From contig NZ_JAXHBW010000001.1 in the NCBI RefSeq assembly GCF_042466185.1, forward strand, positions 1,610,666 through 1,634,665: DNA of 24,000 bases, given 5' to 3'. How positions within the stretch are numbered: the stretch's first letter is position 1; each line of letters starts with the position of its first letter. This stretch comes from Alkalihalobacillus sp. R86527 (GTDB lineage Bacteria > Bacillota > Bacilli > Bacillales > Guptibacillaceae). The notes beneath the pieces are model-generated. The model did no database searches. It was given only the letters and a program-made list of their open reading frames with translations, and was not told the origin of the DNA. This document shows positions 7,754 through 23,277 of the stretch, piece after piece. The translations under genes were made by a program, and so were the position numbers.

Positions 7754-7787
7754 TGATTCTTAATGCACTGATTTTCGATACAAATTG

Positions 7788-8411: not shown

Positions 8412-8559
8412 TACATTCTTTCCTTTCTGTTATGGTATTGTTTAAGTATATAAGAGAAAAGTTCTTTCCAAAAGGAGATTCAGGGGAGAGATTTAAATTT
8501 ATAAAGACCTTTTCAAAGTTGCAGCACCATCTTTAAAAGCAGTAGAATGTAAGTCTTAG

Positions 8560-8724
8560 CATGATCAATGGTCGCTTGAAGAGTTGTTAGGCCATTATTA
8601 TTCAACTTCATATGGATTGAAGAGGTATTTAGAAGACAATGTTGATGAATTTGAAGGTGGTATATGGCATGAGTTGTTGAGTCAACATTCAGATGGTCTA
8701 TTTAAGGAAGAGATAAAAGTGTAA
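8560..8724 (+). pseudogene. Possible 3' remnant of a decayed gene whose C-terminus resembles class I SAM-dependent methyltransferases
   Basis: An open frame with no start codon, beginning right after TAG 8557-8559. It reads HDQWSLEELLGHYYSTSYGLKRYLEDNVDEFEGGIWHELLSQHSDGLFKEEIKV*. It sits in a 390-bp gap that otherwise appears non-coding. The family resemblance is from memory only. Confidence 0.3.
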
Positions 8725-8741
8725 GTACCACTTGGCTATAA

Positions 8742-8771
8742 ATGACAAACCATTTCGTTTAGTGATATAAT
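8742..8771 (+). promoter_or_regulatory. Candidate sigma-A promoter with an extended -10 for the first GNAT gene
   Basis: ATGACA (8742-8747), an 18-nt spacer, TG at 8763-8764, then TATAAT (8766-8771). It lies about 30 nt upstream of the GGAGG RBS. Confidence 0.5.
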
Positions 8772-8803
8772 TCTGACATTTAAAACAATGTGGAGGCTGC
8801 TAA

Positions 8804-9367
8804 ATGAAACCGATCTTATTTGATATTCCTCACGAAATCCATACAGACCGTTTGTATATTCGCTGTCCTCTTCCTGGAGATGGTCCTGCTGTTCATAAAT
8901 CGATTCAAGTGTCGAGGAGAGATTTGAAGCTATGGATGCCTTTTGCAAAAAACGAACAATCCGTTGAAGAAGTAGAAGGAAATATCAGAGAAGCTCATGC
9001 TGCATTTCTTAAACGAGAAGACCTCAGGCTACATATTTTCCATAAAGGAACAGGAGATTTCATTGGATCCTCAGGGCTACACAGAATCAATTGGGACGTT
9101 AGGAAATTTGAAATAGGTTATTGGATAGACTCGCGGTATTCTGGATTTGGGTATATAACCGAAGCTGTTCGGGGAATTACGGATTATGCGTGTAGAGAAT
9201 TATATGCGAAGAGAGTAGAGATAAGGTGTGACTCGAAAAATGCCAAGAGCAAGAGAGTCATAGAACGATTAGGTTTTCGGCTTGAAGGTATTTTACGAAA
9301 TGAGGATGTTTCGATAGATGGCAATGAATTAAGAGATACATGTGTCTATGCAAAGATAAGTGATTGA
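8804..9367 (+). CDS. GNAT-family N-acetyltransferase (RimJ/RimL-like, Acetyltransf_3 type)
   Basis: 187 aa. The N-terminal TDRLYIR motif, EIGYWIDSRYSGFGYITEAV and the C-terminal NAKSKRVIERLGFRLEGILRNE are typical of RimJ/RimL-like GNATs. A GGAGG RBS is present. Confidence 0.85.
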   Translation: MKPILFDIPHEIHTDRLYIRCPLPGDGPAVHKSIQVSRRDLKLWMPFAKNEQSVEEVEGNIREAHAAFLKREDLRLHIFHKGTGDFIGSSGLHRINWDVRKFEIGYWIDSRYSGFGYITEAVRGITDYACRELYAKRVEIRCDSKNAKSKRVIERLGFRLEGILRNEDVSIDGNELRDTCVYAKISD

Positions 9368-9452
9368 GGTAAAGTTACCCAATTCATTAAAATAGCAGGA
9401 ACAAAGCTTTATAATAAAGAAATACCATAAAAGAACTGCAAGGAGGGGACCA

Positions 9453-9887
9453 TTGGTGATTGAACGTGCAAGTGCTGAAGAAAAAGAATACATTCTATCG
9501 AATTCTATTCAATCGGTAAATGAAGGGACCACAAACCCTGGAATAATAAAAGAAGATAAAGCAATAGAGATTGTATCTTCTATCCTCGATCGAGGAGGAT
9601 ACCACCTTGTTTATCGTGATGGTGATCAAATAGCGGGATGGGTGCTTATTGGTGAGAATACAGATTATTTCACTGGCATTAAGCATGGTTTTATCTACGA
9701 TGTATTTGTTTTTCCGGAGTTTCGTGGAAAGGGATATTCGAAGAAACTAGTGCAAGCAAGTATACATGATCTAAAAGAACAAGGATTTGAAGAAATACGT
9801 TTAAATGTTTACTCATCGAATTTCGCGAAATATATCTACAAAGATATTGGATTTAAAGAAATGCAGACAATCATGGTCTACAAATAA
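9453..9887 (+). CDS. GNAT-family N-acetyltransferase
   Basis: 144 aa. Acetyl-CoA binding motif FPEFRGKGYSKKLV (R-x-x-G-x-G). AGGAGG (9441-9446) precedes TTG 9453 and GTG 9456, and either could be the start. Confidence 0.8.
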   Translation: MVIERASAEEKEYILSNSIQSVNEGTTNPGIIKEDKAIEIVSSILDRGGYHLVYRDGDQIAGWVLIGENTDYFTGIKHGFIYDVFVFPEFRGKGYSKKLVQASIHDLKEQGFEEIRLNVYSSNFAKYIYKDIGFKEMQTIMVYK

Positions 9888-9907
9888 TAGACAGGCTTTA
9901 GATCGTA

Positions 9908-9940
9908 AGCCCCTATGCGAAAGCTAGCATAGGGCTTTTC
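9908..9940 (+). terminator. Rho-independent terminator after the GNAT pair
   Basis: CCCTATGC (9911-9918) pairs with GCATAGGG (9927-9934), extended by outer pairs with a bulge, followed by CTTTTC. Confidence 0.6.
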
Positions 9941-10123
9941 TAATTTAAATAATTACAAAAATGGTTTTTATCTAGGGGACGAAATCCCTTAGATATCAAG
10001 GTTTCTAGCGCTTATCAAACAAGTACTATTAAAAATGCGGAAAAAAGTTTTGAAAAAAGTGATCCATTCTCGCATCCACTCCGTTAGCTAGATGTATAAA
10101 AAATTAAGGGGAGTGGATGAAAG

Positions 10124-11503
10124 ATGAAAACGGAAAATAATATGAAGAAAAAAGTAATCGACTGGAAAAAAGGACTATTGATTGTCCCACTAAGTTTTTC
10201 ACTATTAATGCCGACTGGTGCATTTGCAGATGATCACGGTAGTCATTCGGACAAGCCTTCAGTTGAAACGCCAGCAGCTGACCTTAGAGCTACGCTAGGT
10301 CATTTACTTAGTGAACACGCATACCTTGCAGTTGAAACGATGAGAAAAGGAGCTCAAGGCGCTAAAGATTTTGAAGCATCAGCAGGAGCACTTAGCGAAA
10401 ATACAGAAGCTTTAACAGGTGCTATTTCTTCAGTATACGGTGAAGAAGCAGGAGCACAATTTAACCAAATCTGGAGTGACCACATCGGTTTCTTCGTAGA
10501 TTATGTTAAAGCAACAGGAAGTGAAAATGAAGAAGCAAAACAGGAAGCACTTGAAAACCTTGAAGGATATAAAGAGGAGTTTTCAAAGTTCCTTGAAACG
10601 GCGACTGGTGAACGTCTTGAAGCAGAATCTCTAACAAAAGGTTTACAAATGCATATCAACCAGTTAGTAGGGTCTTTCGATAGTTATGTTGAAGGAGATT
10701 ATGAGAAAGCTTATGAACAAGAACGTGAAGCGATCGCTCATATGCATGGTGTAGCAAAAGGGTTCTCAAGTGCAATAACTGATCAATTCCCTGAGAAGTT
10801 CGATGAAACCAAAGCGGTAACACCTGCTTCAGACCTTCGTGCGACTCTAGGTCACTTGCTTTCAGAGCATGCAGGCTTAGCGATGATGACGATGCAGAAT
10901 GGTATCGACGGTTCAGAAGACTTTGAAGCGTCAGCAGCTGCTCTAAACAAAAATACAGAAGCTCTTACTGCAGCGATTGCATCTGTTTATGGTGAAGAAG
11001 CAGGAATGAAATTTAATGAAATGTGGTCTGGCCATATTGGCAACTTCGTAGAATATGTTCAAGCAACGGGTGCTGAAGATGAAGCAGCTAAGGAAAAAGC
11101 ATTAGAAGCACTTGATAACTACCGCGCAGACTTCTCAAGCTTTTTAGAAACAGCTACAGAAGGACGTCTTAAATCAGATGCATTAGCTGAAGGTCTACAA
11201 ATGCACGTGACCCAGTTAATCGGTGCATTCGATAGCTACACAAACGAAGATTACGATGCAGCTTATAATTCAGTGAGAGAAGCATACGCTCATATGTATA
11301 AGCCAGCTAAAGGACTTTCAGGAGCATTTGCTGATCAGTTCCCAGACAAATTCGCTATGAGTATGCCAACGGATATGCCTAAAACAGGTATGGGTGGTAC
11401 TGCAGAACAGCAGCTGCCGATCGAATGGATCTTAGCAGCAGTTCTTGCAACGATGGCAGCTACAGGCGTAGTGGTTAGAAGGAAATTGCAAAAAGATAGC
11501 TAA
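10124..11503 (+). CDS. Secreted acidic two-repeat helical protein with a C-terminal sortase-type (MPKTG) cell-wall sorting signal; family not recognised
   Basis: Signal peptide ...LLMPTGAFA/DD. Two gapless 177-aa repeats. C-terminus: MPKTG, a 13-aa spacer, a hydrophobic stretch (ILAAVLATMAATGVVV) and an RRK tail. An AAGGGGAG RBS lies 10 nt upstream. Confidence 0.8.
   Translation: MKTENNMKKKVIDWKKGLLIVPLSFSLLMPTGAFADDHGSHSDKPSVETPAADLRATLGHLLSEHAYLAVETMRKGAQGAKDFEASAGALSENTEALTGAISSVYGEEAGAQFNQIWSDHIGFFVDYVKATGSENEEAKQEALENLEGYKEEFSKFLETATGERLEAESLTKGLQMHINQLVGSFDSYVEGDYEKAYEQEREAIAHMHGVAKGFSSAITDQFPEKFDETKAVTPASDLRATLGHLLSEHAGLAMMTMQNGIDGSEDFEASAAALNKNTEALTAAIASVYGEEAGMKFNEMWSGHIGNFVEYVQATGAEDEAAKEKALEALDNYRADFSSFLETATEGRLKSDALAEGLQMHVTQLIGAFDSYTNEDYDAAYNSVREAYAHMYKPAKGLSGAFADQFPDKFAMSMPTDMPKTGMGGTAEQQLPIEWILAAVLATMAATGVVVRRKLQKDS
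10271..11353 (+). repeat. Intragenic tandem duplication, units 10271-10801 and 10823-11353
   Basis: By hand alignment, aa 50-226 and aa 234-410 share 113 of 177 identical positions (about 64%) with no gaps. Synonymous sites have diverged, so the duplication is old. Confidence 0.9.
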
Positions 11504-11530
11504 TGCCATTTGGCACATATACTTCATTAA

Positions 11531-11564
11531 ACAGCAATAGCCGAAGTGCTATTGCTGTTTTTTA
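11531..11564 (+). terminator. Rho-independent terminator after the surface-protein gene
   Basis: ACAGCAATAGC (11531-11541) pairs with GCTATTGCTGT (11548-11558) across a 6-nt loop, followed by TTTTTT. Confidence 0.85.
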
Positions 11565-11704
11565 ATTTGAAAACCTACTATGTAAGTTGTATTACAACAA
11601 AAATTTATTGAACAAGATATAATTATAATAGAAACAGTATTTTGTAAAACATAATTATATTATTGTAAACTAAAAGATTTTATGTACACAGCGGAGGTTT
11701 TGGA

Positions 11705-12943
11705 ATGAAATGGAAATTTATAATCGTTATAACTGCTTTAGGAATTCTTACAGCTTGTGGTAATAGTGATGAAAGCGCACCTGAGTCCGAAGAAGTACTT
11801 TCAAAAGATTGGACGGAGATTGAGAAAGATGCTGAAGGAACTGAAGTGAATTTATTTATGTGGGGAGGAGATGAAGGGGTCAATCGTTACATCGATGATT
11901 GGGCTACCCCTATGCTTAAAGAAACGCATAACATCACATTAAACAGGCAACCGATGAATACAGAGGAGTTTATGCAAAAGCTATTAACAGAGAAAAGAGC
12001 AGGAAAGAATAAAGGAACGATCGATATTATTTGGATTAACGGTGCGAATTTCAAGAATGCAAAGAATGCGAATCTTTTATTAGGATCTTTTTCAAATAAA
12101 TTGCCTAACTTCAAGAAGTATATCGGGAGTGATAATCCTTCGGAAGCGTTTGATCAGGGAACGAAAATAGATGGCATGGAAGCCCCGTGGGGAAGCGTGC
12201 AATTTGTGTTTAATTATGACTCAAAAAAGATAGATACCCCGCCTAAAACGTTTGATGAATTGAAATCTTGGATTGCTAAAAATCCAGGTAAATTTACTTA
12301 TCCTAATGTATCGGACTTCACAGGAAACACATTCGTCAAGCACCTCCTCGTAGCGAGTGCTTCAGATCGTGTCGATGTGATGGCAAAAGAGTTTAATCAA
12401 GACTTAGTTGATAAGAGTGGTGAGTATGTGTGGTCGTACTTAAATGAAATAAAACCAAATCTCTGGAGAAGTGGCAAAACGTATCCAGAGTCACTAACAA
12501 AGTTGGATACGTTGTATAGCCAGGGGGAAGTATGGATGACGATGGGATTCAACGAGGCTAGAGCGGAAAGCTTAATAAAAGATGGAACATTTCCAGAAAG
12601 CACAAAGTCATTCGTTCTTGAAGTTCCTGGCTCAATATCTAATAACCATTATTTAAGCATCCCATTTAATAGCCCTAATCCTGCTGGAGCGATGACAGTT
12701 ATTAACTTCTTAGAATCTCCTGAAGCACAGATTGCTAAGCTAGACCCAGAAATGTGGGGGGAAGGTATGGTCTTAGACTATGATAAGCTCAAGAAAGAAG
12801 ATATAAAAAAAATTGAAGCACTAAATCGTGGCGAAAGCGTTCTACCTTCAGAAAAATTAAATGATTCCAAGCTTCCAGATTTAGATACAGGGTATACGGA
12901 GTGGATTAATAATGATTGGGCAGACAAGGTTTTTGAGGAATAA
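11705..12943 (+). CDS. ABC transporter solute-binding lipoprotein (iron/thiamine/polyamine-type importer class; proposed YnjB-like)
   Basis: Lipobox LTAC at aa 15-18. 412 aa with the alpha/beta character typical of solute-binding proteins. First gene of the operon; a GGAGG RBS lies 7 nt upstream. The YnjB-family assignment rests on recollection plus gene context and is not verified. Confidence 0.75.
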   Translation: MKWKFIIVITALGILTACGNSDESAPESEEVLSKDWTEIEKDAEGTEVNLFMWGGDEGVNRYIDDWATPMLKETHNITLNRQPMNTEEFMQKLLTEKRAGKNKGTIDIIWINGANFKNAKNANLLLGSFSNKLPNFKKYIGSDNPSEAFDQGTKIDGMEAPWGSVQFVFNYDSKKIDTPPKTFDELKSWIAKNPGKFTYPNVSDFTGNTFVKHLLVASASDRVDVMAKEFNQDLVDKSGEYVWSYLNEIKPNLWRSGKTYPESLTKLDTLYSQGEVWMTMGFNEARAESLIKDGTFPESTKSFVLEVPGSISNNHYLSIPFNSPNPAGAMTVINFLESPEAQIAKLDPEMWGEGMVLDYDKLKKEDIKKIEALNRGESVLPSEKLNDSKLPDLDTGYTEWINNDWADKVFEE

Positions 12944-13796
12944 GCAGAAAACATGGTTATACTTAGCACCGGCAGTTATCGTTATTTTTTTTCTAGTGGG
13001 TTATGGGATGTGGTCGGCCGTGATTCAAAGTATACAAACTGTAGATGGCAAATGGACGATTGGGTTTTATGAGGACCTTTTTAGAAGCGAATCTTTTTTG
13101 AGGTCTGTACAGTTTACTTTCTGGATTACGGTTATCTCAACCGCTCTTTCTCTTCTTATCGGTCTTATATTGACCAGAATACTTTATCGCTTATTTCAAA
13201 AATCTTCAGTGAAGATTTTGGTGTGGATTCCAATGTTGATTCCTCACTTTGTAGCAGGATATCTTGTCTTCTTGTTTCTATCTCAGAGTGGGTTACTATC
13301 TTCATTTCTCTTTCAGTCGGGATTAATAAGTGATCGATCCATGTTTCCTGTACTTGTTCAAGATAATAGGGGGGGAGGGATTGTCTTAACGTATATATGG
13401 AAGGAAGTCCCATTTGTCATTCTGATGCTTCTCCCGGTTTACTATGAAATCGATCATCGCTATTCAGAGGTAGTAAGAACGTTAGGTGGTAGTAAATGGG
13501 ATGAATTTAAAACTGTGGAATGGCCATGGCTTCTCCCAATAGTCTTGGAAGTTGCGATCATCTTATTCGCCTTTGTTTCTACTGCTTTTGAGGTACCATA
13601 TTTACTAGGTGTTACAAGACCTGAAATGCTTCCTGTTCATGCCTATGATTGGTTTTATAATGGAGATTGGAGTAAGCGACCACTAGCCTTTGCTGCGATG
13701 ATCATTCCTGGTATCGTGTCACTTTTGCTGGCAGGGATCTCCTTCAAGCTCATTCAAAAACACAGGTTACGCCTAATTAAAGGGAGAGTACGATGA
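12912..13796 (+). CDS. ABC transporter permease 1
   Basis: Six hydrophobic helices and an EAA loop (SEVVRTLGGSKWDEFKTVEWPWLLP). It overlaps the solute-binding gene by 32 nt. GGAG lies 10 nt before ATG 12912. Confidence 0.85.
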   Translation: MIGQTRFLRNKQKTWLYLAPAVIVIFFLVGYGMWSAVIQSIQTVDGKWTIGFYEDLFRSESFLRSVQFTFWITVISTALSLLIGLILTRILYRLFQKSSVKILVWIPMLIPHFVAGYLVFLFLSQSGLLSSFLFQSGLISDRSMFPVLVQDNRGGGIVLTYIWKEVPFVILMLLPVYYEIDHRYSEVVRTLGGSKWDEFKTVEWPWLLPIVLEVAIILFAFVSTAFEVPYLLGVTRPEMLPVHAYDWFYNGDWSKRPLAFAAMIIPGIVSLLLAGISFKLIQKHRLRLIKGRVR

Positions 13797-14614
13797 GGTT
13801 AAAAGAAATTATTTGGGGGAAGAAAAGAAAGGTGATCGTTCTTATCACCTTGTTCATTTTTGTGTTATTGTTTATCCTCCCTCTCTTTGCAATCGTTGTA
13901 AAGAGTTTTGCTGCTGATTGGAAATGGCCGATTCTATTTCCTAACGAATTAGGTTTAGATGGATGGAAGGTTATCTTTTCAGATCCAGCACTAGTTGAAT
14001 CTCTCATTACAACGGTAAGACTGGGAATAATGGTAGTACTGCTAAACTTGATATTAGCTATGCCGGCAGCAAAAGCATTATCGATATATTCTTTTAAAGG
14101 GAAGTTTCTAATCGAGGCATTTTTACTATCACCTATCTTGATACCAGGCATTTTACTCGCTATGGGTTTGCAGTATACGTTGATTCAGTTTGGATTAGCA
14201 GATCGACTAAGTGGCGTGTTATTGGTTCATATGATCCCTACTTTGCCTTATTCGATACGCATAATGAGAGCAGGGTATGAACGACTTGGTAAAGGGTTGA
14301 GTGAACAAGCGGCAGTGCTAGGCTCAGGTCCAGTAGTCAGTTTTTTTACAGTATCTCTTCCACTCCTGCTCCCAAGCATTAGAAGTTTAATGCTTTTAAC
14401 ATTTGTGATTTCGCTTGGGCAATATGCATTAACAGCAATTATTGGTGGAGGAATTGTAACAACCCTGCCATTATTATACTATCCTTATTTTTCAAGCTCC
14501 AATGAAGCAGTTATCGCTGGGTTTTCATTATTATTTGCTTTACTTCCACTCCTATTTGTGGGAGTTGCAGAAATAGCATTAAGAGCGGTCATTCGGGTAG
14601 TTAATCGAATTTGA
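13793..14614 (+). CDS. ABC transporter permease 2
   Basis: EAA loop (LSEQAAVLGSGPVVSFFTVSLPLLLP). ATGA overlap with permease 1. Confidence 0.85.
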   Translation: MRLKEIIWGKKRKVIVLITLFIFVLLFILPLFAIVVKSFAADWKWPILFPNELGLDGWKVIFSDPALVESLITTVRLGIMVVLLNLILAMPAAKALSIYSFKGKFLIEAFLLSPILIPGILLAMGLQYTLIQFGLADRLSGVLLVHMIPTLPYSIRIMRAGYERLGKGLSEQAAVLGSGPVVSFFTVSLPLLLPSIRSLMLLTFVISLGQYALTAIIGGGIVTTLPLLYYPYFSSSNEAVIAGFSLLFALLPLLFVGVAEIALRAVIRVVNRI

Positions 14615-14630
14615 AAGGAAGATTACAGGT

Positions 14631-15626
14631 ATGAATGACCTTATCCAATGTAACAAATTAACGAAAAGCTATTCAGGACAATCCATTTTAAACGATGTTT
14701 CATTTTCTCTAAAAAAAGGAGAACATCTAACGATCGTTGGACCTTCCGGTTGTGGAAAATCCACTTTGCTTCGGTGCCTTGCAGGTCTTGAGTTCATCGA
14801 CAGTGGTGACGTAAAGCACAATGGACAATTGATTACGTCAACAAGACCTGAAAAACGCTCAATCGTTTTGATGTTTCAAGATTCCTTATTATTTCCTCAT
14901 CTCACAGTTATCGAAAATATAACATATGGGTTGAAAAGGACAAAAACTCCCAAAAAAGAGCGGGTAACACAAGCCCTACAAATGTTAGAAAAGGTGAAGC
15001 TTACACCTTGGAAAAACGTATATCCACATGAGCTTTCTGGTGGTCAGAAGCAGCGTGTCTCTCTTGCGAGGGCACTTGTTTTAAAACCAGACCTTCTGTT
15101 ACTAGATGAACCATTCAGCTCATTAGACGCATCACTTCGAGAATCTCTAAGGGGCGAAGTGAAGGAGATATTACGGGAAGAAAATATTACATCATTATTT
15201 ATTACTCATGACCGCGATGAAGCAATTGAGTTAGCAGATCGTTTAGCGGTTATGAATGATGGCCGATTGATTCAACAAGGAACACCGTATGATGTTGTAA
15301 CATATCCTTCTTCAATAGAAAGTGCCAGAATAATAGGAGAAGGTCTCCCTTTAGAAGAAGGGTTTGTACCTCTTCACCATGTTACAGCCGTAGGTAAGAA
15401 TGACGTCGTGCTGAATAATAAAGAATCGATATCAATCCCTGGAAAAGTAACCGCGCATACAGTGAAAAACAATTCAGTTTGTTATCGTGTTTCTTGGAAG
15501 GATGGAACGGTACTTGTTTCTTCTGAAGATGTATTAGTACCAGGACAGGATGTGCTTCTGAAGGCAGCAAGAATGCACGTTCATCCGTATGAACAAAATC
15601 TAAGTTCATGGAGCAATACTCCATGA
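14631..15626 (+). CDS. ABC transporter ATP-binding protein (PotA/FbpC/YnjD-like)
   Basis: Walker A GPSGCGKST, signature LSGGQKQRVSLAR, Walker B LLLLDEPFS, H-loop ITHD, plus a C-terminal accessory domain of about 90 aa. Confidence 0.92.
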   Translation: MNDLIQCNKLTKSYSGQSILNDVSFSLKKGEHLTIVGPSGCGKSTLLRCLAGLEFIDSGDVKHNGQLITSTRPEKRSIVLMFQDSLLFPHLTVIENITYGLKRTKTPKKERVTQALQMLEKVKLTPWKNVYPHELSGGQKQRVSLARALVLKPDLLLLDEPFSSLDASLRESLRGEVKEILREENITSLFITHDRDEAIELADRLAVMNDGRLIQQGTPYDVVTYPSSIESARIIGEGLPLEEGFVPLHHVTAVGKNDVVLNNKESISIPGKVTAHTVKNNSVCYRVSWKDGTVLVSSEDVLVPGQDVLLKAARMHVHPYEQNLSSWSNTP

Positions 15627-16276
15627 CGATTAGAGCAGTAATAAAAGGAATCATGATGGTTTGTCTGGTGATTGGAGTTTACCTGCTTAATGAGAATGTG
15701 TTTAACCTCCGACCTTCTCAACTTCGTTTGTGGATTTCATCATTTGGTCTTTATGCTCCGTTGATTTTCCTAATCGCTACGATAGGAAGACCGTTTATTT
15801 TGTTTCCAACATCGGTACTTTCGATAGCAGGTGGCCTGGTTTTTGGTCCGTATATTGGGACCATTTTAGCTGTAGTAGGTGGCTCCACTGGGGCATTGTT
15901 GTTCTTTCTAGCGGCACGAAAGCTTGGCTTGAAAGCATTGCCAGCATTCTTGCGGAAAAGAGGGGAAAGGTTAGAAAAAGGTCTTGCCGAGCAAGGGTTT
16001 GCCTATGTGTTGCTATTAAGGTTGGTCCCATTTTTGCACTTCGATCTTGTTAGTTATGTATGCGGTGTTTCTAACGTAGATAAAAAGAAATATTATCTTG
16101 CAACGTTAGTAGGCATGCTTCCTGGAGCATTAGCACTGAATTTTCTAGGTGCCAGTTTTCTATCAAACAATATTAAATCAGTTGGAATCGCAGCTATCGT
16201 CTTATTAGCTCTCCTATTAATCACATTGTATATTCGCAAAAAAGCGTTTGGAACAGAATTAGAAAAAGAAATTTAA
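15623..16276 (+). CDS. TVP38/TMEM64-family (DedA superfamily, SNARE-associated) membrane protein, YdjX/YdjZ-like
   Basis: Polytopic protein with the family-typical segments FILFPTSVLSIAGGLVFGP and LLRLVPFLHFDLVSYVCGVS. The preferred start, ATG 15623, has GGAG 9 nt upstream and an ATGA overlap with the ATPase stop. The tracked ORF starts at 15608. Confidence 0.8.
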   Translation: MTIRAVIKGIMMVCLVIGVYLLNENVFNLRPSQLRLWISSFGLYAPLIFLIATIGRPFILFPTSVLSIAGGLVFGPYIGTILAVVGGSTGALLFFLAARKLGLKALPAFLRKRGERLEKGLAEQGFAYVLLLRLVPFLHFDLVSYVCGVSNVDKKKYYLATLVGMLPGALALNFLGASFLSNNIKSVGIAAIVLLALLLITLYIRKKAFGTELEKEI

Positions 16277-16293
16277 TTGAAGGATGGTGTGCT

Positions 16294-16875
16294 GTGCTCG
16301 ATACACATGGAAGGAAGTATGTACAGCCTATCATGGACAAAACTGCAGACTGGTTTCTTAAGCTAGGTCTTAGTGCCAATCAGGTAACGATTATATCGTT
16401 TATAATTGGGGTCTCCTCAGGGGTTTTTATTTATATAGATCAACCGGTTTTAGCTGTTGTAGTTCTATGGGTTTCTGGATACCTCGATGCGGTGGATGGA
16501 ACGATGGCAAGGAAAACAAAGCCATCCGCGTTTGGAACAGTTTTGGATGTGAGTTTCGATCGTGTTGTAGAAATTAGTGTCATTTTAGGACTTGCTTTCG
16601 CATTTCCTGAATCGATGTGGGCATTGTTGTTACTCAGTACTTCGATCATATTTGCAATGACCATCTTTCTAACTGTCGGAGCTGTTTCAGAGAAACAAGG
16701 AATAAAATCATTTTATTATCAAGCAGGTGCAGCTGAACGGACAGAAGGGTTTCTATTGTTTACCGCTATGATCCTCTTCCCTAGCTACTTAACAATACTT
16801 ACATTAATATTTCTAGCAGTTGAACTATTTACAAGCTTACAAAGACTAATCGAAGCAAAAAGAATACTGTCGTAG
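16294..16875 (+). CDS. CDP-alcohol phosphatidyltransferase family protein (YnjF-like)
   Basis: Family motif LDAVDGTMARKTKPSAFGTVLDVSFD, i.e. D-x2-DG-x2-AR-x7-G-x3-D-x3-D. 193 aa and multi-pass. The GTG start has AGGA 9 nt upstream. Confidence 0.85.
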   Translation: MLDTHGRKYVQPIMDKTADWFLKLGLSANQVTIISFIIGVSSGVFIYIDQPVLAVVVLWVSGYLDAVDGTMARKTKPSAFGTVLDVSFDRVVEISVILGLAFAFPESMWALLLLSTSIIFAMTIFLTVGAVSEKQGIKSFYYQAGAAERTEGFLLFTAMILFPSYLTILTLIFLAVELFTSLQRLIEAKRILS

Positions 16876-16888
16876 AGGGGTGTTTCAT

Positions 16889-18316
16889 ATGGAGAAATAT
16901 GACTTGATCGTGATAGGTGGAGGGTCGGGAGGATTAACAGCTGCAGCTGGAGCTGCTAACATGGGAGCGAGCGTTGCATTGATCGATGATCAACCCGGTC
17001 TTGGTGGCGATTGTTTGCACTTTGGATGTGTGCCTTCTAAGGCTTTTATTTCGGCAGCAAGGGAAGTTCATGCCGTTTACAAAGGGGCAAAAGAATTTGG
17101 ATTATCTGTTAGCGGAGAAGTTCGATTTCAAAGAGCCATTGATCGAGTTCATGAAGCTATTGAGGACATCCAAGAAATCGATAGCGATCAGCGATTTGAA
17201 GACCTTGGTATAACGATTTACCGTGGGAAAGGTTCCTTCGTGGACGAACACACTGTATCGATTGATGGTGAAAATACAATTAAAGGAAAAAGAGTAATCA
17301 TTTCTACAGGTTCTAGTCCTAGTGTTCCTCCTATACAAGGTGTTGATCAAGTACCTTTTCTTACAAATGAAACGATATTTAATTTAGATCATCTACCTGA
17401 AAGTATTGTGTTTATTGGTGGAGGAGTTGTAGGGCTCGAGCTTGCTCAATCATTAGCAAGGTTCGGAGCGAATGTGACGGTCATCGAAACATCTCAGACA
17501 ATCTTAAAAAAAGAAGATGGCGATATTATTCCTGTAGCAAGAGAAATCTTAGAAAAAGAACTTACCTTTATTTACAAAGCGGAGGTAACTGGGATTTCTA
17601 CACGTGATGGGAAAAAGGCTGTAATGTATAAGGTTGATGGAAATGAAGAAGAGTTACTCGTTAACGAGATCATGATGTCAACAGGGAGAAAGCCCAATAC
17701 AGATAAGCTAAACCTTGAAGCTGCAGGCATAGAAAGCAATAAAGGATATATTACTGTGAATGATCAGTTACAAACTTCTAAATCACATATCTACGCTATA
17801 GGAGACGTTAACGGAGCTTTTCCATTCACACATGGAGCTGGAATGGAAGGGAAATTGATTATACAAAATGCGGTATTTGGATTAAGAAGAAAAGTGAACT
17901 ATGATAATGTACCATGGGTAACGTATACTGACCCGGAAATCTTCCATCTTGGCTTAACTGAGGAAGAAGCAAAAGAAAAACATGGTCAGAATATTCGTAT
18001 ATTCAAAGTTGATGTAGCTGACGTCGATCGCTTTATTGCAGAGCGGAAAAAAGATGGTCTTGTGAAAGTGATTACAGATTCAAAAGGGAAAATATTAGGA
18101 GCACATGCTGTTGGAGAAGATGCATCGAGTTGGATGCAGGAAATTGTTTTTGCAAAAGAACATGGGCATAAGCTAGGTGATTTATCTACCGTCATTCACC
18201 CATATCCTACTAAGGGAGCGATCCTGAATCAAGCATCAGATCTGTACTGGCGTGAAAAACTTTTTGATGGGATCTTTCCAAAGGTTGCTGAAAAATACAT
18301 TAAATGGGTCAGGTAA
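16889..18316 (+). CDS. Class I pyridine nucleotide-disulfide oxidoreductase (dihydrolipoyl dehydrogenase / mercuric reductase-like flavoprotein)
   Basis: FAD fold VIGGGSGG, redox-active disulfide GGDCLHFGCVPSK, NAD(P) fold FIGGGVVGLE, AIGDV motif and a dimerisation domain. AGAGGGG lies 8 nt before ATG 16889; the tracked ORF starts at GTG 16880. Confidence 0.85.
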   Translation: MEKYDLIVIGGGSGGLTAAAGAANMGASVALIDDQPGLGGDCLHFGCVPSKAFISAAREVHAVYKGAKEFGLSVSGEVRFQRAIDRVHEAIEDIQEIDSDQRFEDLGITIYRGKGSFVDEHTVSIDGENTIKGKRVIISTGSSPSVPPIQGVDQVPFLTNETIFNLDHLPESIVFIGGGVVGLELAQSLARFGANVTVIETSQTILKKEDGDIIPVAREILEKELTFIYKAEVTGISTRDGKKAVMYKVDGNEEELLVNEIMMSTGRKPNTDKLNLEAAGIESNKGYITVNDQLQTSKSHIYAIGDVNGAFPFTHGAGMEGKLIIQNAVFGLRRKVNYDNVPWVTYTDPEIFHLGLTEEEAKEKHGQNIRIFKVDVADVDRFIAERKKDGLVKVITDSKGKILGAHAVGEDASSWMQEIVFAKEHGHKLGDLSTVIHPYPTKGAILNQASDLYWREKLFDGIFPKVAEKYIKWVR

Positions 18317-18334
18317 GAGAAAAGGATGATTTGA

Positions 18335-19414
18335 TTGAAAAAGTTGTTGTTAATCGGGGGAGGACACGCTCACCTCTATTTAATTAAGAAATTACAAGAT
18401 GAAGAACTGGAAGTTGAAGTAACAGTCATGTCTCCTTCTGAATACCAGTATTATTCAGGTATGTTTTCTGGCTATATGGAGGGGATCTATAGTTTTGAGA
18501 ATATCCGAATTCATCTCCCTACTCTTGCAGATAAAGCAAAGGTTTCGTTCATAAGAGGAGCAGCATTATCGATCGATGCAGAAGCGAAAGTGGTATTAAC
18601 TGAGAAGGGAGATATTGTTTCATATGATATGCTATCGATTGATATTGGATCTTATACTGGTGGGATCGATGTGCCAGGAGTAAGGCAGCATGCTCTTCGA
18701 ATCAAACCTACGTACCGAATTGAAGAAGTTGCAAACAAAATGTGGGAAGCTAATAATCCTGTAGTTGTAGGTGGGGGTGCCGCGGGGATAGAGATGGCGC
18801 TTTCCTTGAATGCAAAGAGACAGGCTGAAGGCAAAGCAGCCGTAACGTTAATAACGCAGTCAACGCTATTAACAGGAGAGCACGAAAAAACACAAACTAA
18901 AATTCAAGAAATAGCAACGGAAAAAGGCTTGAATGTTCATCAGAACGAAAGAGTTTCAAATGTTACTTCCTCAAGCATCATAACCTCTGAAGGAAATCAG
19001 ATCTCTTATGATCAACTTCTCTGGTTGACTGGTCCAAAAGCACCAGGGATTTTCCAAACCTCTAAATTACCCGTTGATCATAATGGCTATTTGTTAGTTG
19101 AAGATACGCTACAAGTGAAGGAATATCCTGCTATATTTGCAGCTGGAGATTGTGCATCGCTTAGAGATTACCCAAACCTTCCAAAATCAGGTGTTATTGC
19201 AGTAAGGCAGTCAGAAGTCTTGTGGAATAATATTAAAGGCTTTATTAAAGGAGAAGATGGTATCCGTTTTCAACCAAAAGAGAGATATTTATCAATTCTC
19301 TCAACTGGAAATAAAGATGGACTATTATTATATGGAAACGTAAGTCTTCATCACCATTTCTCATGGAAGCTAAAAAATAAAATTGATCGAAGGTTTATAG
19401 AGAACTACCAATAG
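18335..19414 (+). CDS. FAD-dependent NADH-dehydrogenase-like oxidoreductase (Pyr_redox_2 type) lacking a redox disulfide
   Basis: N-terminal LLIGGGHAHLY dinucleotide fold, second fold VVVGGGAAGIEMAL and FAAGDCAS motif. TTG start with AGGA 8 nt upstream. Confidence 0.75.
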   Translation: MKKLLLIGGGHAHLYLIKKLQDEELEVEVTVMSPSEYQYYSGMFSGYMEGIYSFENIRIHLPTLADKAKVSFIRGAALSIDAEAKVVLTEKGDIVSYDMLSIDIGSYTGGIDVPGVRQHALRIKPTYRIEEVANKMWEANNPVVVGGGAAGIEMALSLNAKRQAEGKAAVTLITQSTLLTGEHEKTQTKIQEIATEKGLNVHQNERVSNVTSSSIITSEGNQISYDQLLWLTGPKAPGIFQTSKLPVDHNGYLLVEDTLQVKEYPAIFAAGDCASLRDYPNLPKSGVIAVRQSEVLWNNIKGFIKGEDGIRFQPKERYLSILSTGNKDGLLLYGNVSLHHHFSWKLKNKIDRRFIENYQ

Positions 19415-19419
19415 TAAAA

Positions 19420-19452
19420 GGCAGGCTTTCACTGACAGCCTGCCTTTTATGA
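19420..19452 (+). terminator. Rho-independent terminator ending the 8-gene operon
   Basis: AGGCAGGCT (19422-19430) pairs with AGCCTGCCT (19440-19448) across a 9-nt loop, followed by TTTTA. Confidence 0.8.
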
Positions 19453-19746
19453 TGCATTTCGTTCTTTTCTCGCAGTTTTGAAGAATAATAGTTCATATAT
19501 GATTGGAACGATTAGTAAGGAGAAGTGTTGGCGTTAGCAATGCATCTAGAGGTATGAAGGTTTCGGAATGTGTCATTTCTTGCCGATCACGTTTATAATG
19601 GGAATAGAGGTAATAGCTGAAAAGCAAATGACACTATAGCTCTACGAAGTGCTCGACCAGAGATACTCATAAAAAAACTTTCTACTGAGGATAAGGAAAC
19701 AGTTTATGAACCGTTTCTATAGATGAAAAGGAAGAGGAGTGAAAAG

Positions 19747-20064
19747 ATGAAGTTACAGTTTACAGATAGAGCGATTGAAAAACTAGAGTCAGAGCAAAAA
19801 GGTTACTTTAAGCTGAATTATGATATTGAGGATTGTGGATGTGTCGTCAACGGAGTTACGCAGCTTGTATTGGATTCAGAGGTTGGTGACTACGACTTAG
19901 AGTTAGAAACTAATTTTCGACCGGTTAGAGTACAGAAACAATATGCAGTGTTTTTTGATGAGGATATGAAGGTAGACTTTCTACCAAAATATCATTGTTT
20001 TATGTTGAAAAGTGATAATGAGATATTGAACCCAAGAATGCGTTATATCAATCGTATTTCGTAG
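19747..20064 (+). CDS. HesB/IscA-fold 'iron-sulfur cluster biosynthesis family' small protein (YneR-like)
   Basis: 105 aa reading MKLQFTDRAIEKL...YFKLNYDIEDCGCVVNGV...FFDEDMKVDF...LKSDNEILNPRM, which matches my memory of the Bacillus YneR-type family. GGAAGAGGAG precedes ATG 19747; the tracked ORF starts at 19723. Confidence 0.65.
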   Translation: MKLQFTDRAIEKLESEQKGYFKLNYDIEDCGCVVNGVTQLVLDSEVGDYDLELETNFRPVRVQKQYAVFFDEDMKVDFLPKYHCFMLKSDNEILNPRMRYINRIS

Positions 20065-20298: not shown

Positions 20299-21207
20299 TT
20301 AGTTAGTTTTTGCTGAGACTTCTTTTTGATAAAGGGTACGATAGGGTGTACTAATAGATCGTGAAAGGTGTGGCTCTATCTCATCGATTGCCATCATGAG
20401 TTTATTTAAGTTAATCCCAGTAGCGACGCCCATCCGTTCTAACATGTAAACAACGCTTTCTGTTGCAACGTTGCCTGTTGCTCCTTTGGCAAAAGGACAA
20501 CCGCCAAGTCCACCTGCAGACGTGTCAAACCTTGAAATACCTGCTGTGAGACAGGCGTAAATATTAGCAAGTGCCATACCCCTAGTATCATGAAAATGAG
20601 CAGTCAGTAGGGTGGTTGGAAATTCCTTTTTTAGTGTATGGAAGAGGTGATAGGATTCTTCTGGGGTGGCCATGCCGATTGTATCAGCAACACTAAGCTC
20701 ATCTACTCCGGCGTTAACGAACTTCCTGCACACATCTAGCGTATCTTGTAATGCTATCTGCCCTTCATAGGGACAGTAGAAAGCAGTTGAAATGCATGCG
20801 CGAACAAAGTAACCGTCCCGTTTCAACTCATCTACTAAAACGGTCAGTTCTTCTAATAATTGTTCGGTTTCTTTATTGCTGTTCTTTTGATTAAACGTAT
20901 TACTTACACCTGCAAATAAAGCAACGGCTGAAACATTTGTTTCCTTTATTCGTTCGATGCCTTTTCTGTTAGGTGCAAGTACGAAATTTCTAGATTCATC
21001 TAGACATGAGTCGGTAATTCCTTTGGCGTCTTTCATCTGTGGAACCCACTTCGGAGAAACGAAAGAAGTAATTTCCATCTCTTTAATACCTGAATCTTTA
21101 AGTGCACTTATAAAGTTAATCTTATTTTCAGTAGGCACATAATTTGCTTCGTTTTGGAGACCATCTCTTGGGCCCACTTCGATTATTGTCGCTTGTTCTG
21201 GTATCAT
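20299..21207 (-). CDS. Hydroxymethylglutaryl-CoA lyase
   Basis: IIEVGPRDGLQNE, HFHDTRGMALAN and GGLGGCPFAKGATGNVATE motifs. The preferred start is Met59 of the tracked ORF (ATG 21207), with GAGAGG 9 nt upstream, giving a typical length of 302 aa. Confidence 0.9.
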   Translation of the reverse strand: MIPEQATIIEVGPRDGLQNEANYVPTENKINFISALKDSGIKEMEITSFVSPKWVPQMKDAKGITDSCLDESRNFVLAPNRKGIERIKETNVSAVALFAGVSNTFNQKNSNKETEQLLEELTVLVDELKRDGYFVRACISTAFYCPYEGQIALQDTLDVCRKFVNAGVDELSVADTIGMATPEESYHLFHTLKKEFPTTLLTAHFHDTRGMALANIYACLTAGISRFDTSAGGLGGCPFAKGATGNVATESVVYMLERMGVATGINLNKLMMAIDEIEPHLSRSISTPYRTLYQKEVSAKTN

Positions 21208-21225
21208 GATTATCAGCCTCTCATT

Positions 21226-21239
21226 TGTAAGCGTTATCT
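21226..21239. promoter_or_regulatory. Candidate catabolite-responsive element (cre, CcpA site) in the divergent intergenic region
   Basis: TGTAAGCGTTATCT matches 13 of 14 positions of TGWAANCGNTNWCA. It lies 19 nt upstream of the HMG-CoA lyase start codon. Confidence 0.45.
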
Positions 21240-21372
21240 TTTTTATTAAAACAAAGCTAAGGTATTGTTGCAAGAAAATCGTTAGAATAATGGGAATTCT
21301 ATTTCTTTGAAGGATTTTTCTTATCAAAGTAAGAATTATGTAGAAGAGAGTCACTTTAAGGAGGAAAATGCG

Positions 21373-22557
21373 ATGAATCAAGATGTAGTAATTGTAAGCG
21401 CTGTCAGAACCCCTATAGGGTCTTTTAGTGGTGCTTTGAAGAATATTTCAGCACCAGACCTTGGTGCGTTAGCTATTAAAGAATCAATCCGAAGAGCTGG
21501 CATTACGCCTGATCAAATAGAAGAAGTCATTATGGGTAATGTACTTCAAGCTGGGCTAGGTCAAAACCCAGCAAGGCAGGCAGCTATAAAAGCAGAAATT
21601 CCAGTAACTACGCCTGCGATGACCATTAATAAAGTATGTGGGTCTGGATTGAAAACAGTTCATCTAGGTGCACAATCAATCATGCTTGGTGATCAAGATA
21701 TTGTGGTAGCTGGAGGAATGGAAAATATGAGCCAAGCTCCATATCTTCTTCAAGGAGCGAGAGATGGACTTAGAATGGGCGATCAAAAGATTGTCGATAG
21801 TATGGTCCACGACGGACTTTGGTGTGCATTTAATGATTATCATATGGGAGTAACTGCAGAAAACCTTTGCGAGCATTACAATTTGTCGCGAGAAGAGATG
21901 GATGAATTTGCAGCTTCAAGTCAACAAAAAGCTCAAGTCGCGATTGAAGAAGGACGTTTTAAAGATGAAATTGTCCCTGTCTCGATCCCCCAACGTAAAG
22001 GTGACCCTGTAATCTTTGATACAGATGAATATGTGAAACCAGGTACGACATCTGACAAGCTTGGTAAGCTTCGACCTGCTTTCAAGAAAGATGGTCGTGT
22101 AACTGCAGGGAATGCTTCAGGAATTAATGATGGAGCAGCAGCTGTTGTGTTGATGAGTCGTAAGAAAGCAGAGGAACTAGGAGTTGAATATCTAGCCGTT
22201 ATTAAGGCTAACGCAAGCGGTGGCGTAGACCCAAGTGTTATGGGGCTCGGACCAGTTCCTGCAACTAAAAAGGTACTAGAGAGAGCAAGTCTATCGATGA
22301 GTGACATGGACTTAGTGGAAGCTAACGAAGCATTCGCTGCACAGTCTCTCGCTGTAGGAAGGGATTTAGATTTTGATCGTGAGATTCTTAATGTTAATGG
22401 AGGAGCAATTGCGTTAGGACATCCAATTGGGGCGAGTGGAACGAGAGTCTTAGTTACACTTATTCATGAGATGAAACGAAGAAATAATCGATATGGACTT
22501 GCCACACTCTGTATTGGTGGTGGACAAGGGGTAGCGACAATAATAGAAAGACCTTAA
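21373..22557 (+). CDS. Acetyl-CoA C-acetyltransferase (thiolase II)
   Basis: NKVCGSGLK (nucleophilic Cys), [15 protein letters not shown] and CIGGGQG motifs. AAGGAGG precedes ATG 21373. The tracked ORF's upstream 22 codons overlap the divergent region. Confidence 0.92.
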
Positions 22558-22579
22558 TAATAGAGGAGGCATATAGCAT

Positions 22580-23266
22580 ATGAAACCTATTCTAAATTCA
22601 TTTGATGAAGCAGTAAAAGATATACAGGATGGTGCGACCCTTTTGGTAGGTGGGTTCGGCCTTGTAGGTATTCCAGAGAATTTAATTATAGCTATTCGAG
22701 ACAAAGGTGTTAAAGACCTAACCGTTATTTCTAACAATTGTGGAGTAGACGATTGGGGTCTTGGTCTTCTCTTGAAAAATAAACAGATTAAAAAGATGGT
22801 AGGTTCTTACGTAGGTGAAAACAAAGAGTTTGAGCGTCAAGTACTGTCAGGAGAGTTAGAAGTAGAGTTAATCCCTCAAGGAACATTAGCTGAGCGAATT
22901 CGTGCTGGTGGTGCAGGGATTCCAGCTTTCTACACGCCTGCTGGAGTAGGAACTCCAATTGCAGAAGGTAAGGAAGTTCGGAGCTTTGATGGGAAAGAGT
23001 ATTTGCTTGAGCCTGCAATAAAAGCTGACTTTTCACTCGTTCGAGCTGCTAAAGCTGATTTGATGGGAAATCTTGTTTATAACAAAACTGCTCGTAATTT
23101 CAATCCTATGATTGCGGCAGCAGGTGAAGTGACCATCGCTGAAGTGGAAGAGGTTGTCGAAAACGGAGCGCTTGAACCAGATCACATTCATACTCCAAGT
23201 ATTTATGTGCAAAAAGTAATCGTTGGTGAACAAGAAAAGAGAATCGAAAGACTAACGACTAAGTAA
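22580..23266 (+). CDS. scoA: 3-oxoacid (succinyl-CoA:acetoacetate) CoA-transferase subunit A
   Basis: N-terminal segment [20 protein letters not shown] is typical of the family I CoA-transferase A subunit. GAGGAGG RBS. Confidence 0.9.
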
Positions 23267-23277
23267 GGAGGCTAACC

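Follow-up and report, generated by a model that had tools for sequence, protein, structure and literature searches.

The window, a 24,000-nucleotide stretch of the genome of Alkalihalobacillus sp. R86527 (39% G+C; contig NZ_JAXHBW010000001.1, positions 1,610,666 to 1,634,665), an alkaliphile, carries a predicted operon of eight genes in which an ABC importer of the YnjBCD type is encoded together with a TVP38/TMEM64 membrane protein, a YnjF-type CDP-alcohol phosphotransferase and two flavoproteins. These genes are clustered far beyond chance in distantly related bacteria, and their linkage is functional, not accidental. From the composition of the operon, its conservation and the family memberships of its products, which were observed directly, we infer a mechanism that reaches beyond them: the operon would salvage an external sugar- or riboside-type head group into a specialised phospholipid, TVP38 would translocate this lipid, and a reductase would keep its chalcogen or metalloid reduced. 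We put the probability of this reading at about 0.4.

All eight open reading frames (ORFs) lie on the + strand between 11705 and 19414, and their starts are preceded by purine-rich ribosome-binding sites; for the last four proteins the starts agree with the NCBI gene calls. Along the block, the junctions are an overlap of 32 nt, an ATGA overlap of 4 nt, a gap of 16 nt, a second ATGA overlap of 4 nt and gaps of 17, 13 and 18 nt. An initial annotation, made from the sequence alone, had listed the same junctions, and every one proved exact by ORF coordinates. Intrinsic terminators flank the block on the + strand. The upstream one (11529..11560), a 13-bp stem followed by a T-run, belongs to the preceding surface-protein gene and marks the 5' boundary of the unit. 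It folds at -17.9 kcal/mol (z -5.4) and is kept in two related loci (L002 and L003; loci are numbered with an L throughout). The downstream terminator (19414..19452; GGCAGGCU...AGCCUGCC, then UUUUAU) closes the operon, its hairpin at 19414-19450 reaching -22.3 kcal/mol (z -5.0). For either hairpin, 0 of 200 shuffled sequences were as stable, in agreement with the strong terminators that had been proposed on both sides. A consensus scan inside coding sequence returned eight weak terminator-like sites on the + strand; the four that were folded reached only -4.3 to -10.5 kcal/mol, and therefore the earlier statement that there is no strong internal terminator was correct. The component families named in the initial annotation likewise all agreed with Pfam and NCBIfam profile matches.

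Conservation was analyzed in 80 loci anchored on the binding-protein gene, with one genome per species, from Bacillota, Rubrobacter, Chloroflexota, Spirochaetota and Desulfobacterota. These loci are not phylogenetically independent. Their ORFs were searched by BLAST with the window and E. coli proteins, using score thresholds of our own choice, and, as an internal control, counts in flanks up to 4 kb from the transporter (543 kb) were compared with counts in flanks further away (561 kb). TVP38 was found near the transporter 48 times versus 3 times far from it, and adjoins it in 43 loci. The YnjF-type transferase (37 versus 0) and flavoprotein 1 (36 versus 0) were found exclusively near the transporter; the counts for flavoprotein 2 were 17 versus 3. 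At least one partner was present in 43 of the 55 fully flanked loci, and the association was found in every clade of the binding-protein tree. As a reverse anchor, metagenomes were scanned with an alignment of eight Bacillota transferase sequences, yielding 80 further loci in a sample biased towards Bacillota-type enzymes. Among the 25 of these with at least 6 kb on both sides, the transporter was encoded in 20, TVP38 in 20 and a redox partner in 19. Gene order is shuffled between loci while proximity is kept, and the module recurs in Bacillota, Actinomycetota (Rubrobacter), Chloroflexota, Spirochaetota and Desulfobacterota as well as in E. coli, with at least six phyla represented. We regard the linkage as functional because the near/far control, the reciprocal anchor, the kept proximity and the fusion proteins described below all indicate it. 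The conserved functional module postulated in the initial annotation is thus borne out by near/far counts and reverse anchor alike, and enrichment of TVP38 and the CDP-alcohol transferase beside the transporter is strong and reciprocal across phyla. The literature searched gave no description of the four-way module, of the interchangeable reductase, of the link to TIGR04282/TIGR04283 or of the Crp-type operator; already known are the y-gene cluster of E. coli, the fusion of TVP38 to a reductase and the individual families.

The E. coli ydj/ynj locus (NC_000913 1828000-1845000, compared by BLASTP) had been put forward as the counterpart of the operon. As far as homologous parts are concerned, this is correct: both encode an NF008633 binding protein, YnjC-type permease domains, a YnjD-like ATPase, TVP38 proteins of the YdjX/YdjZ type, a YnjF-type transferase and a sulfur/redox accessory set. 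What needed correction was the place of ynjF, which the proposal had listed in one row with the other genes of the cluster. The ydjXYZ-ynjABCD genes form one FNR-activated operon (PMC3688515), ynjF is convergent to ynjE, and it lies outside the ydjXYZ-ynjABCD transcript (PMC12288877). Unlike the window, E. coli has two TVP38 paralogues flanking YdjY, an AhpD-like YnjA and a rhodanese YnjE instead of the flavoproteins, a fused permease and a shorter ATPase. An intermediate linking the two forms is found in Ammoniphilus (L031), with the order Y-T-T-B-P-P-A-C. No function has been assigned to YdjX, YdjZ, YnjF or YnjBCD in the literature searched, which on the function of the ynj/ydj genes or their combination gave only transcriptome tables.

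The importer occupies the first four genes. The lipoprotein substrate-binding protein (11705..12943, + strand) scored 438.9 bits on the YnjB family model NF008633/PRK11622 (cut-off 203; E. coli YnjB itself 559.9 bits) and shares 36% identity with YnjB (BLASTP, E = 6e-63). It is 100% identical to the NCBI record from Alkalihalobacillus sp. R86527. Its lipobox reads LTAC with an invariant Cys18, and the residues conserved in the protein are aromatic and acidic (W, D, E, N). A sequence search returned no solved relative. The AF2 model has a pLDDT of 89.7. Permease 1 (12912..13796, + strand) and permease 2 (13793..14614, + strand), both BPD_transp_1 proteins, correspond to the N- and C-terminal halves of YnjC (residues 37-231 and 363-503, respectively). 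These matches are weak (E = 6e-6 and 4e-8, 24-26% identity), and in the absence of a YnjC-specific profile the permease assignment rests on the BLASTP alignment; in some Bacillaceae the two permeases are fused, as in E. coli. The ATPase (14631..15626, + strand; ABC_tran, 128 bits) is 39% identical to YnjD over residues 19-194 (E = 1.5e-34) and, with 331 residues versus 217, carries an extra C-terminal domain of about 100 residues. In NCBIfam, permeases and ATPase are of the polyamine/phosphonate/thiamine type, not the CysPTWA type. A profile search thus placed the binding protein in the YnjBCD family, and the permease halves align to YnjC, as had been proposed. In five Desulfovibrionaceae loci (L051, L052, L054, L058 and L069, around 7300-12400), the YnjB-family binding protein is an orphan, neither a permease nor an ATPase gene being next to it. 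Four of these loci share an arrangement in which a TauE/SafE-family membrane protein gene comes before the binding-protein gene and a RihA-like nucleoside hydrolase gene after it, and a regulator of the ArsR family is encoded about 2 kb upstream; L051 was confirmed to have a GntR regulator. The remaining locus, L052, has the hydrolase and differs in its upstream genes. The pairing of orphan binding protein and nucleoside hydrolase suggests a riboside-type ligand, at least for that branch.

The transferase (16294..16875, + strand, GTG start) belongs to PF01066 (46.9 bits, gathering score 22). It aligns with YnjF over its full length (residues 1-184) at 30% identity and has the complete catalytic motif D65xxD68G69xxA72R73...G81xxxD85xxxD89 (DxxDGxxAR-x7-G-x3-D-x3-D). 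D65, D68, G69, A72, R73, G81, D85 and D89, together with E151 and R184, are invariant among 15 family members. Transferase and YnjF also have the subfamily motifs MLD (at the start), KSFYY..G..E.TE and QRL in common, and NCBIfam models rank in the same order for both. The YnjF subfamily has no curated model, and membership was assigned by alignment, motifs and genomic partner; the full-length identity and the family-specific motifs agree with the YnjF-like enzyme proposed earlier. Its nearest characterised relatives are archaetidylinositol-phosphate synthase (AIPS), phosphatidylinositol-phosphate (PIP) synthase (PIPS) and di-myo-inositol-phosphate-phosphate synthase (DIPPS), all scoring below cut-off: 95.5 bits on NF040950 (AIPS, cut-off 180) and 64.9 bits on NF045883 (cut-off 170), so that the equivalog cut-offs for PIP and archaetidylinositol-phosphate synthase were not reached. 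Profile comparison aligned it over its full length with DIPPS (1e-17) and PIPS (1e-16). These enzymes, which couple a CDP-activated donor to a phosphorylated cyclitol, share with it the six-helix architecture, the catalytic motif, the ER.E motif and the C-terminal QRL; they differ in that the scores are about half the equivalog cut-offs and that the operon has no inositol-phosphate synthase gene. Similar logic is known from the Pcs pathway, where choline uptake is followed by CDP-diacylglycerol:choline transfer to give phosphatidylcholine, an imported alcohol being condensed directly with CDP-diacylglycerol by a CDP-alcohol phosphatidyltransferase; we know of no Pcs operon with a DedA protein or a reductase. 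Pcs models gave about 20 bits on YnjF and no score on the window transferase.

A YdjM-family membrane hydrolase is encoded in seven loci from three phyla, namely L004 (8094-8630), L005 (8064-8648), L049 (8582-9178), L071 (11983-12570), L048, L074 and L076. In three genomic loci it lies within about 2 kb of the transporter genes, and in L071 between the two permease genes. It matches zinc phospholipase C weakly and has a TGTAA-N6-TTACA site of its own in L004 and L005. The hydrolase may process the lipid product.

The TVP38/TMEM64 protein (15623..16276, + strand), named 'TVP38/TMEM64 family protein' by NCBI, is a TMEM41-type DedA membrane protein with a VTT domain (PF09335, 88.8 bits versus a gathering score of 33.9). 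It is 33% identical to YdjX (E = 1.4e-19); YdjX and YdjZ are members of the TMEM41 family. The UptA model gave 15.9 bits versus 250; among E. coli DedA proteins the comparison covered YdjX and YdjZ. By analogy (PMC10193950; preprint 10.1101/2020.12.18.423352), the protein is a predicted lipid translocator that would act as a scramblase or flippase. A precedent is the B. subtilis operon pssA-petA(ybfM)-psd, in which a CDP-alcohol transferase is encoded together with a DedA protein flipping its product (PMC10193950); a fusion of DedA to a CDP-OH transferase also exists (Roney and Rudner, PMC10193950). The two operons are alike in pairing a CDP-alcohol phosphatidyltransferase with a DedA-superfamily protein. 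They differ in that PetA clusters with UptA-like DedA proteins and the window protein probably falls in the TVP38/TMEM41 branch, in that the B. subtilis enzyme is PssA and the window transferase PIPS/AIPS-like, and in that neither an importer nor a reductase belongs to pssA-petA-psd, whose head group, serine, is made in the cell.

TVP38 is also physically joined to reductases. The commonest reported TVP38/COG0398 fusions are to a pyridine nucleotide-disulfide oxidoreductase, PF07992+PF02852 (PMC10127716), and the two partners of such fusions are neighbours in the window, where the order is TVP38, transferase, flavoprotein 1. In L065 the VTT domain is fused to a flavin reductase, and in L063 (14357-16651, + strand) a 764-residue protein combines a VTT domain with two short-chain dehydrogenase (SDR) domains. 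The earlier report recorded the reductase fusion and proposed a link with aerobic metabolism, and did not tie it to YnjBCD, to a YnjF-type transferase or to HdrB-like replacement in anaerobes (PMC10127716). The L063 fusion, a second kind of TVP38-oxidoreductase fusion, lies directly 3' of the flavoprotein in a spirochaete version of the module. Where the YdjY lipoprotein is encoded, the adjacent TVP38 protein is 380-397 residues long (L031 8094-9239, L035 6789-7961, L037 6800-7972, L025 8531-9721); in L031, the only one scanned, the first ~200 residues before the VTT domain had no Pfam match.

Flavoprotein 1 (16889..18316, + strand) is a class I flavoprotein disulfide reductase of the Lpd/MerA type (Pyr_redox_2, 205 bits; Pyr_redox_dim, 86.9 bits). 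Both the redox-active CxxxxC site GGDCLHFGCVPSK and a basic aromatic C-terminal tail, YWRxKLF...KYIKWVR, are conserved in 33 homologues; the hydrophobic moment of the tail is 0.51 (rank 10 of 458). The protein scored under the equivalog cut-offs for Lpd (TIGR01350, 364.1 versus 408.8) and MerA (TIGR02053, 362.6 versus 454.45), and its HPYP motif lacks the Glu partner, the His being replaced by Tyr or Leu in some homologues. A mercury or metal reading was rejected, there being no C-terminal Cys pair and no HMA domain. In a Chloroflexota locus (L071 4871-6673, - strand), a bona fide MerA-type reductase with an HMA domain adjoins the TVP38-flavoprotein pair, which may be coincidental. Flavoprotein 2 (18335..19414, + strand, TTG start) is an NDH-2/FSP1-like protein of the 'N-terminal-to-SelD' family, which narrowly misses the TIGR03169 cut-off (301.4 versus 310; residues 4-358 on model positions 2-365) and gave 191 bits on a SelD-related fusion model. 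Its PDB matches were NDH-2, FSP1 and SQR, the nearest being NDH-2 and FSP1. Seventeen Bacillaceae loci have it near the module, but only 7 of the 17 encode it on the module's strand. Thus, of the two flavoproteins initially assigned to the unit, the first stands as a module component and the second is a looser accessory, confined to Bacillaceae.

Three types of redox partner replace and exclude one another: the class I flavoprotein, the YdjY lipoprotein with its invariant TGCxxCxDSCP motif, and an HdrB-like CCG iron-sulfur protein accompanied by a rhodanese. No locus had both flavoprotein 1 and YdjY/rhodanese, 28 had the flavoprotein only, 7 YdjY/rhodanese only and 14 neither (Fisher p = 0.0014, phylogeny ignored), and flavoprotein 1 and the CCG protein never occurred together in one locus. 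The swapping of redox partners suggested by the initial annotation was therefore recovered, as none of the YdjY, rhodanese and CCG partners ever co-occurs with the Lpd-like flavoprotein. A Fer4 plus double-CCG protein takes the place of flavoprotein 1 in anaerobes (Clostridium L039, Garciella L041, Anaerobacillus L030) and in the majority of metagenome loci from gut and sediment. It resembles HdrB and TfrB, scores 251 bits, below cut-off, on NF045663 ('diclust_near_Sec'), and is usually encoded between two TVP38 genes with a rhodanese downstream, in the order T-H-T-C-B-P-P-A-rhodanese. In L036 a DCC1-like thiol-disulfide oxidoreductase is encoded between TVP38 and the flavoprotein. Because interchangeable partner types are seen across loci, a thiol/disulfide-type reductase function is a constant need of the module, provided by different proteins in aerobes and anaerobes.

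The gene string is longer in five loci (L046, L064, L100, L106 and L145), which come from two phyla and from metagenomes. It gains a CofC-like nucleotidyltransferase and a GT2 glycosyltransferase, scoring above the cut-offs of TIGR04282 and TIGR04283, respectively, as well as an APH-family kinase; L064 and L145 also have a nucleoside hydrolase of the RihA type and a membrane protein resembling YedE/FdhT that is split in two. In L100, L106 and L145 the string also includes TVP38, the YnjF-type transferase, the CCG protein and a rhodanese. The L145 order is rhodanese, regulator, YedE halves, Fe-S flavoprotein, CCG protein, TVP38, binding protein, permease, transferase, permease, ATPase, GT2, CofC-like protein, kinase and hydrolase. 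Hydrolase, kinase, nucleotidyltransferase and glycosyltransferase together constitute a textbook route from a nucleoside via an activated pentose to a glycoside. NCBIfam names both TIGR04282 and TIGR04283 'arsenosugar biosynthesis glycosyltransferase', a system associated with the radical-SAM enzyme ArsS, which makes 5'-deoxy-5'-dimethylarsinoyl-adenosine (PMC13598754); on later steps of arsenosugar biosynthesis the literature searched gave nothing. Both genes share a string with a YnjBCD-type transporter in the five loci. SelD was not found inside them. In contrast to these loci, the window has no TIGR04282, TIGR04283, kinase or nucleoside hydrolase gene among its annotated genes (~1.9 kb to 23.3 kb), and its operon is the minimal form of the module, without those four genes.

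Between the upstream terminator and the first gene lies a palindrome, TGTAAGTTGTATTACA (11581..11596, + strand; TGTAA-N6-TTACA), a predicted Crp/Fnr-family activator site. A predicted -10 hexamer, TATAAT, follows at 11618..11623 (+ strand), which would put the transcription start near 11630. In two related species, the half-sites are exact (L002) or read TGTAA-N6-TTACG (L003). In 43 Bacillota loci (839 kb) the strict motif occurred 24 times, 15 of them within 250 nt upstream of module genes, a space making up 4.8% of the sequence (p = 1.5e-14); it precedes module genes in 14 of the 43 loci. Since a -10-like hexamer follows the palindrome by 20-21 nt in 11 of these 14, the predicted site would be centred at about -41.5, the geometry of a class II Crp/Fnr-dependent promoter, where it would replace the -35 element. 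An orthologous Crp-family regulator of 225-226 residues, with a cNMP-binding and an HTH_Crp_2 domain, is encoded beside the module in seven Bacillaceae loci, the window not being one of them. It has a single cysteine and is therefore not an Fe-S FNR protein. The E. coli operon is documented to be under a Crp/Fnr-family activator (PMC3688515), and control of this kind is predicted for the window operon; palindrome and FNR parallel argue for one promoter serving the whole block, with regulator binding and transcription start as predictions from the sequence. A σ70 promoter scan gave 18 matches versus 27 in shuffled sequence, none upstream of the operon on the + strand. Rfam returned no riboswitch or leader RNA at gathering threshold in the whole window, and at 11400-11800 only chance-level matches to the terminator hairpin. 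AT-rich repeats ATAATTAT at 11619 and 11651 were considered as a Fur/PerR box and rejected, the half-sites being poor and not conserved in L003.

In several Bacillaceae a second, separately transcribed TVP38 paralogue lies a few kb from the operon (L004 18981-19649, L005 17140-17808, L010 10588-11244, L012 973-1641, all - strand). It too has the palindrome upstream, within 16 nt of the ORF in L010 and at 200-700 nt in the other loci, suggesting a small regulon of the Crp-family regulator. A relaxed match to the palindrome, TGTGAAAGTGATTACA, at 18061-18076 inside the flavoprotein 1 gene is probably due to chance (~0.02 relaxed matches per kb).

Taken as a salvage pathway, the module would work as follows. 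The YnjBCD-type importer would take up a hydroxylated, sugar- or riboside-like head-group precursor, which the YnjF-type enzyme would link to CDP-diacylglycerol in the inner leaflet. TVP38, from the bacterial branch of the TMEM41B/TMEM64 scramblase family, would carry the lipid product across the membrane. Flavoprotein 1, fused to TVP38 in other species and here presumably held at the membrane by its amphipathic tail, would use NAD(P)H to keep an S-, Se- or As-containing group of the precursor or lipid reduced; flavoprotein 2 may be a second, quinone- or chalcogen-directed reductase added only by Bacillaceae. Hosts of the extended operons would make the head group themselves, from nucleoside hydrolase via kinase and CofC-like nucleotidyltransferase to GT2 glycosyltransferase, and the minimal operon of the window would rely on ready-made environmental material. 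Expression would be switched on by the Crp-family regulator at -41.5. We favour a lipid pathway because relatives of the transferase use CDP-donors, YdjX and YdjZ fall in the TMEM41 family and pssA-petA-psd provides a precedent. The head-group lipid and the chalcogen compound, offered as separate hypotheses in the initial annotation, may be two halves of one pathway, each of which gains contextual support. A more specific version, in which the head group is a ribose-derived sugar with redox-active S, Se or As, and TVP38 and the tethered reductase form a transmembrane lipid redox or detoxification cycle, appears unlikely to us.

Several observations weigh against the salvage pathway. A lipid route as such has no need for a disulfide reductase, and the role given to it here is a guess. 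The transferase fails every equivalog cut-off and could use a non-lipid CDP-alcohol donor, as in DIPPS. Foldseek with the binding-protein model found only remote neighbours (12-19% identity), whose ligands are disparate: phosphonate, iron, polyamine and sugar phosphate. DedA proteins have also been tied to small-molecule or ion transport. In E. coli, ynjF is not co-transcribed with the transporter. The transporter stands without any partner in 12 of the 55 fully flanked loci, and as some of these retain nothing but the kinase and hydrolase, the tie of the importer to the lipid branch is not a strict one. The label 'arsenosugar' comes from database naming alone, because neither ArsS nor ArsM was present among the ORFs checked in the extended loci.

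Part of the same evidence could be read as uptake and reduction of an S, Se or As compound, which the cell would assimilate or detoxify without making a dedicated lipid. After import, the reductases, rhodanese or HdrB-like proteins would reduce or hand over the chalcogen; TVP38 would then be a small-molecule transporter, as proposed for DedA selenite uptake, and the transferase secondary, serving membrane adaptation. Pointing this way are the flavoprotein 2 scores on TIGR03169 (301 bits) and the SelD-related fusion model (191 bits), the partners of other species (rhodanese, AhpD-like and HdrB/TfrB-like CCG proteins, DCC1 oxidoreductase, YedE/FdhT-like Se/S transporter halves), ArsR-family regulators that 11 loci encode at a distance of up to about 10 kb from the binding-protein gene, the TauE-family membrane proteins of five Desulfovibrionaceae loci and, in L046, a LysR regulator weakly similar to a selenium-associated type. 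We nevertheless find this explanation rather doubtful. It leaves unexplained the YnjF-type transferase, the tightest-linked partner (37/0; 20/25), and the sugar-activation genes that join the operon; moreover, the conserved aromatic and acidic residues of the binding protein are unlike those of oxyanion binders, and permeases and ATPase are not of the CysPTWA type. The constancy of a disulfide-reductase-type partner, in interchangeable types, would also fit a thiol/disulfide shuttle for the export of reducing power, in which the disulfide of a low-molecular-weight thiol is imported, reduced by flavoprotein 1 or the HdrB-like enzyme, and exported as a thiol by TVP38 to serve extracytoplasmic proteins such as YdjY or the periplasmic YnjE. 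The invariant CxxCxxxC of the YdjY lipoprotein, the adjacency or fusion of TVP38 and reductase, and the place of the E. coli operon in the anaerobic FNR regulon are consistent with such a shuttle, but it gives no role to the CDP-alcohol transferase or to the glycosyltransferase, CofC-like, kinase and hydrolase genes. With a catalytic His in flavoprotein 1 that varies among homologues and is missing its Glu partner, and with no thiol-binding signature found in the binding protein, we judge it decidedly improbable.

Some pathway databases label YnjBCD by ThiBPQ homology, which would make the importer a system for salvage of thiamine or another vitamin, its neighbours being unrelated or loosely related. 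Permeases and ATPase do match ThiP/ThiQ models weakly, and the kinase of the extended loci is weakly ThiK-like (27-31 bits). All thiamine-model scores, however, are far under their cut-offs, the only model matched by the binding protein is that of YnjB, with no hit among thiamine-binding families, Rfam detected neither a TPP nor any other riboswitch in the window, and the cross-phylum link to TVP38, transferase and reductases would go unexplained, so that thiamine salvage is very unlikely. Least credible, to the point of being almost negligible, is chance juxtaposition of independent units that lie on one strand in this lineage. The variable position and strand of flavoprotein 2, the opposite strand of E. 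coli ynjF and the loci with a lone transporter (12/55) would agree with it, but the conservation data already contradict it: at least six phyla have these partners, in shuffled order and still in proximity, the near/far control and reciprocal anchor show tight linkage, and there are fusion proteins, a shared regulatory palindrome, overlapping stop and start codons and no strong internal terminator.

Among bacterial proteins, YdjX and YdjZ come closest to the human scramblases TMEM41B and TMEM64, and the module turns four separate 'unknowns' into one testable pathway. The target that it suggests is a minor, inducible phospholipid, possibly containing S, Se or As, made from an external precursor. 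The more specific S/Se/As sugar lipid, if real, would be a bacterial relative of arsenosugar phospholipids, and would provide the first assigned substrate for bacterial TMEM41-type DedA proteins and a function for nine E. coli y-genes. A likely induction switch, the dedicated Crp-family regulator with its operator in Bacillaceae and FNR in E. coli, would make the pathway visible. Anaerobes of gut and sediment commonly have the arsenosugar-annotated genes, whose link to the module could be relevant to how microbes deal with dietary As or Se.

The genes flanking the operon are unrelated to the module: quinol oxidase, LysE, GNAT acetyltransferase and surface-protein genes upstream, and genes for a HesB-like protein, HMG-CoA lyase, thiolase and CoA transferase downstream. 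The haem-copper oxidase cluster (COX2, COX1, COX3; 4388-7730, - strand) and the HMG-CoA lyase/thiolase/CoA-transferase cluster (20299-23946) belong to ordinary metabolism and have no conserved link to the module. The HesB/IscA-type Fe-S cluster assembly protein (19723-20064, + strand; PF01521, 78.6 bits), also outside the conserved module, has a promoter-like site of its own at 19570-19599 (10/12 match). The gene directly upstream of the operon (10124-11503, + strand) encodes a secreted protein of 459 residues with no Pfam family match. It contains two copies of a helical domain of about 190 residues (for example TLGHLLSEHA...YGEEAG...SFDSY, found twice) and a C-terminal hydrophobic anchor weakly like the GVDTG sorting domain (23 bits, cut-off 29). 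In Guptibacillus (L002, L003), the gene has kept both its terminator and its place upstream of the operon.

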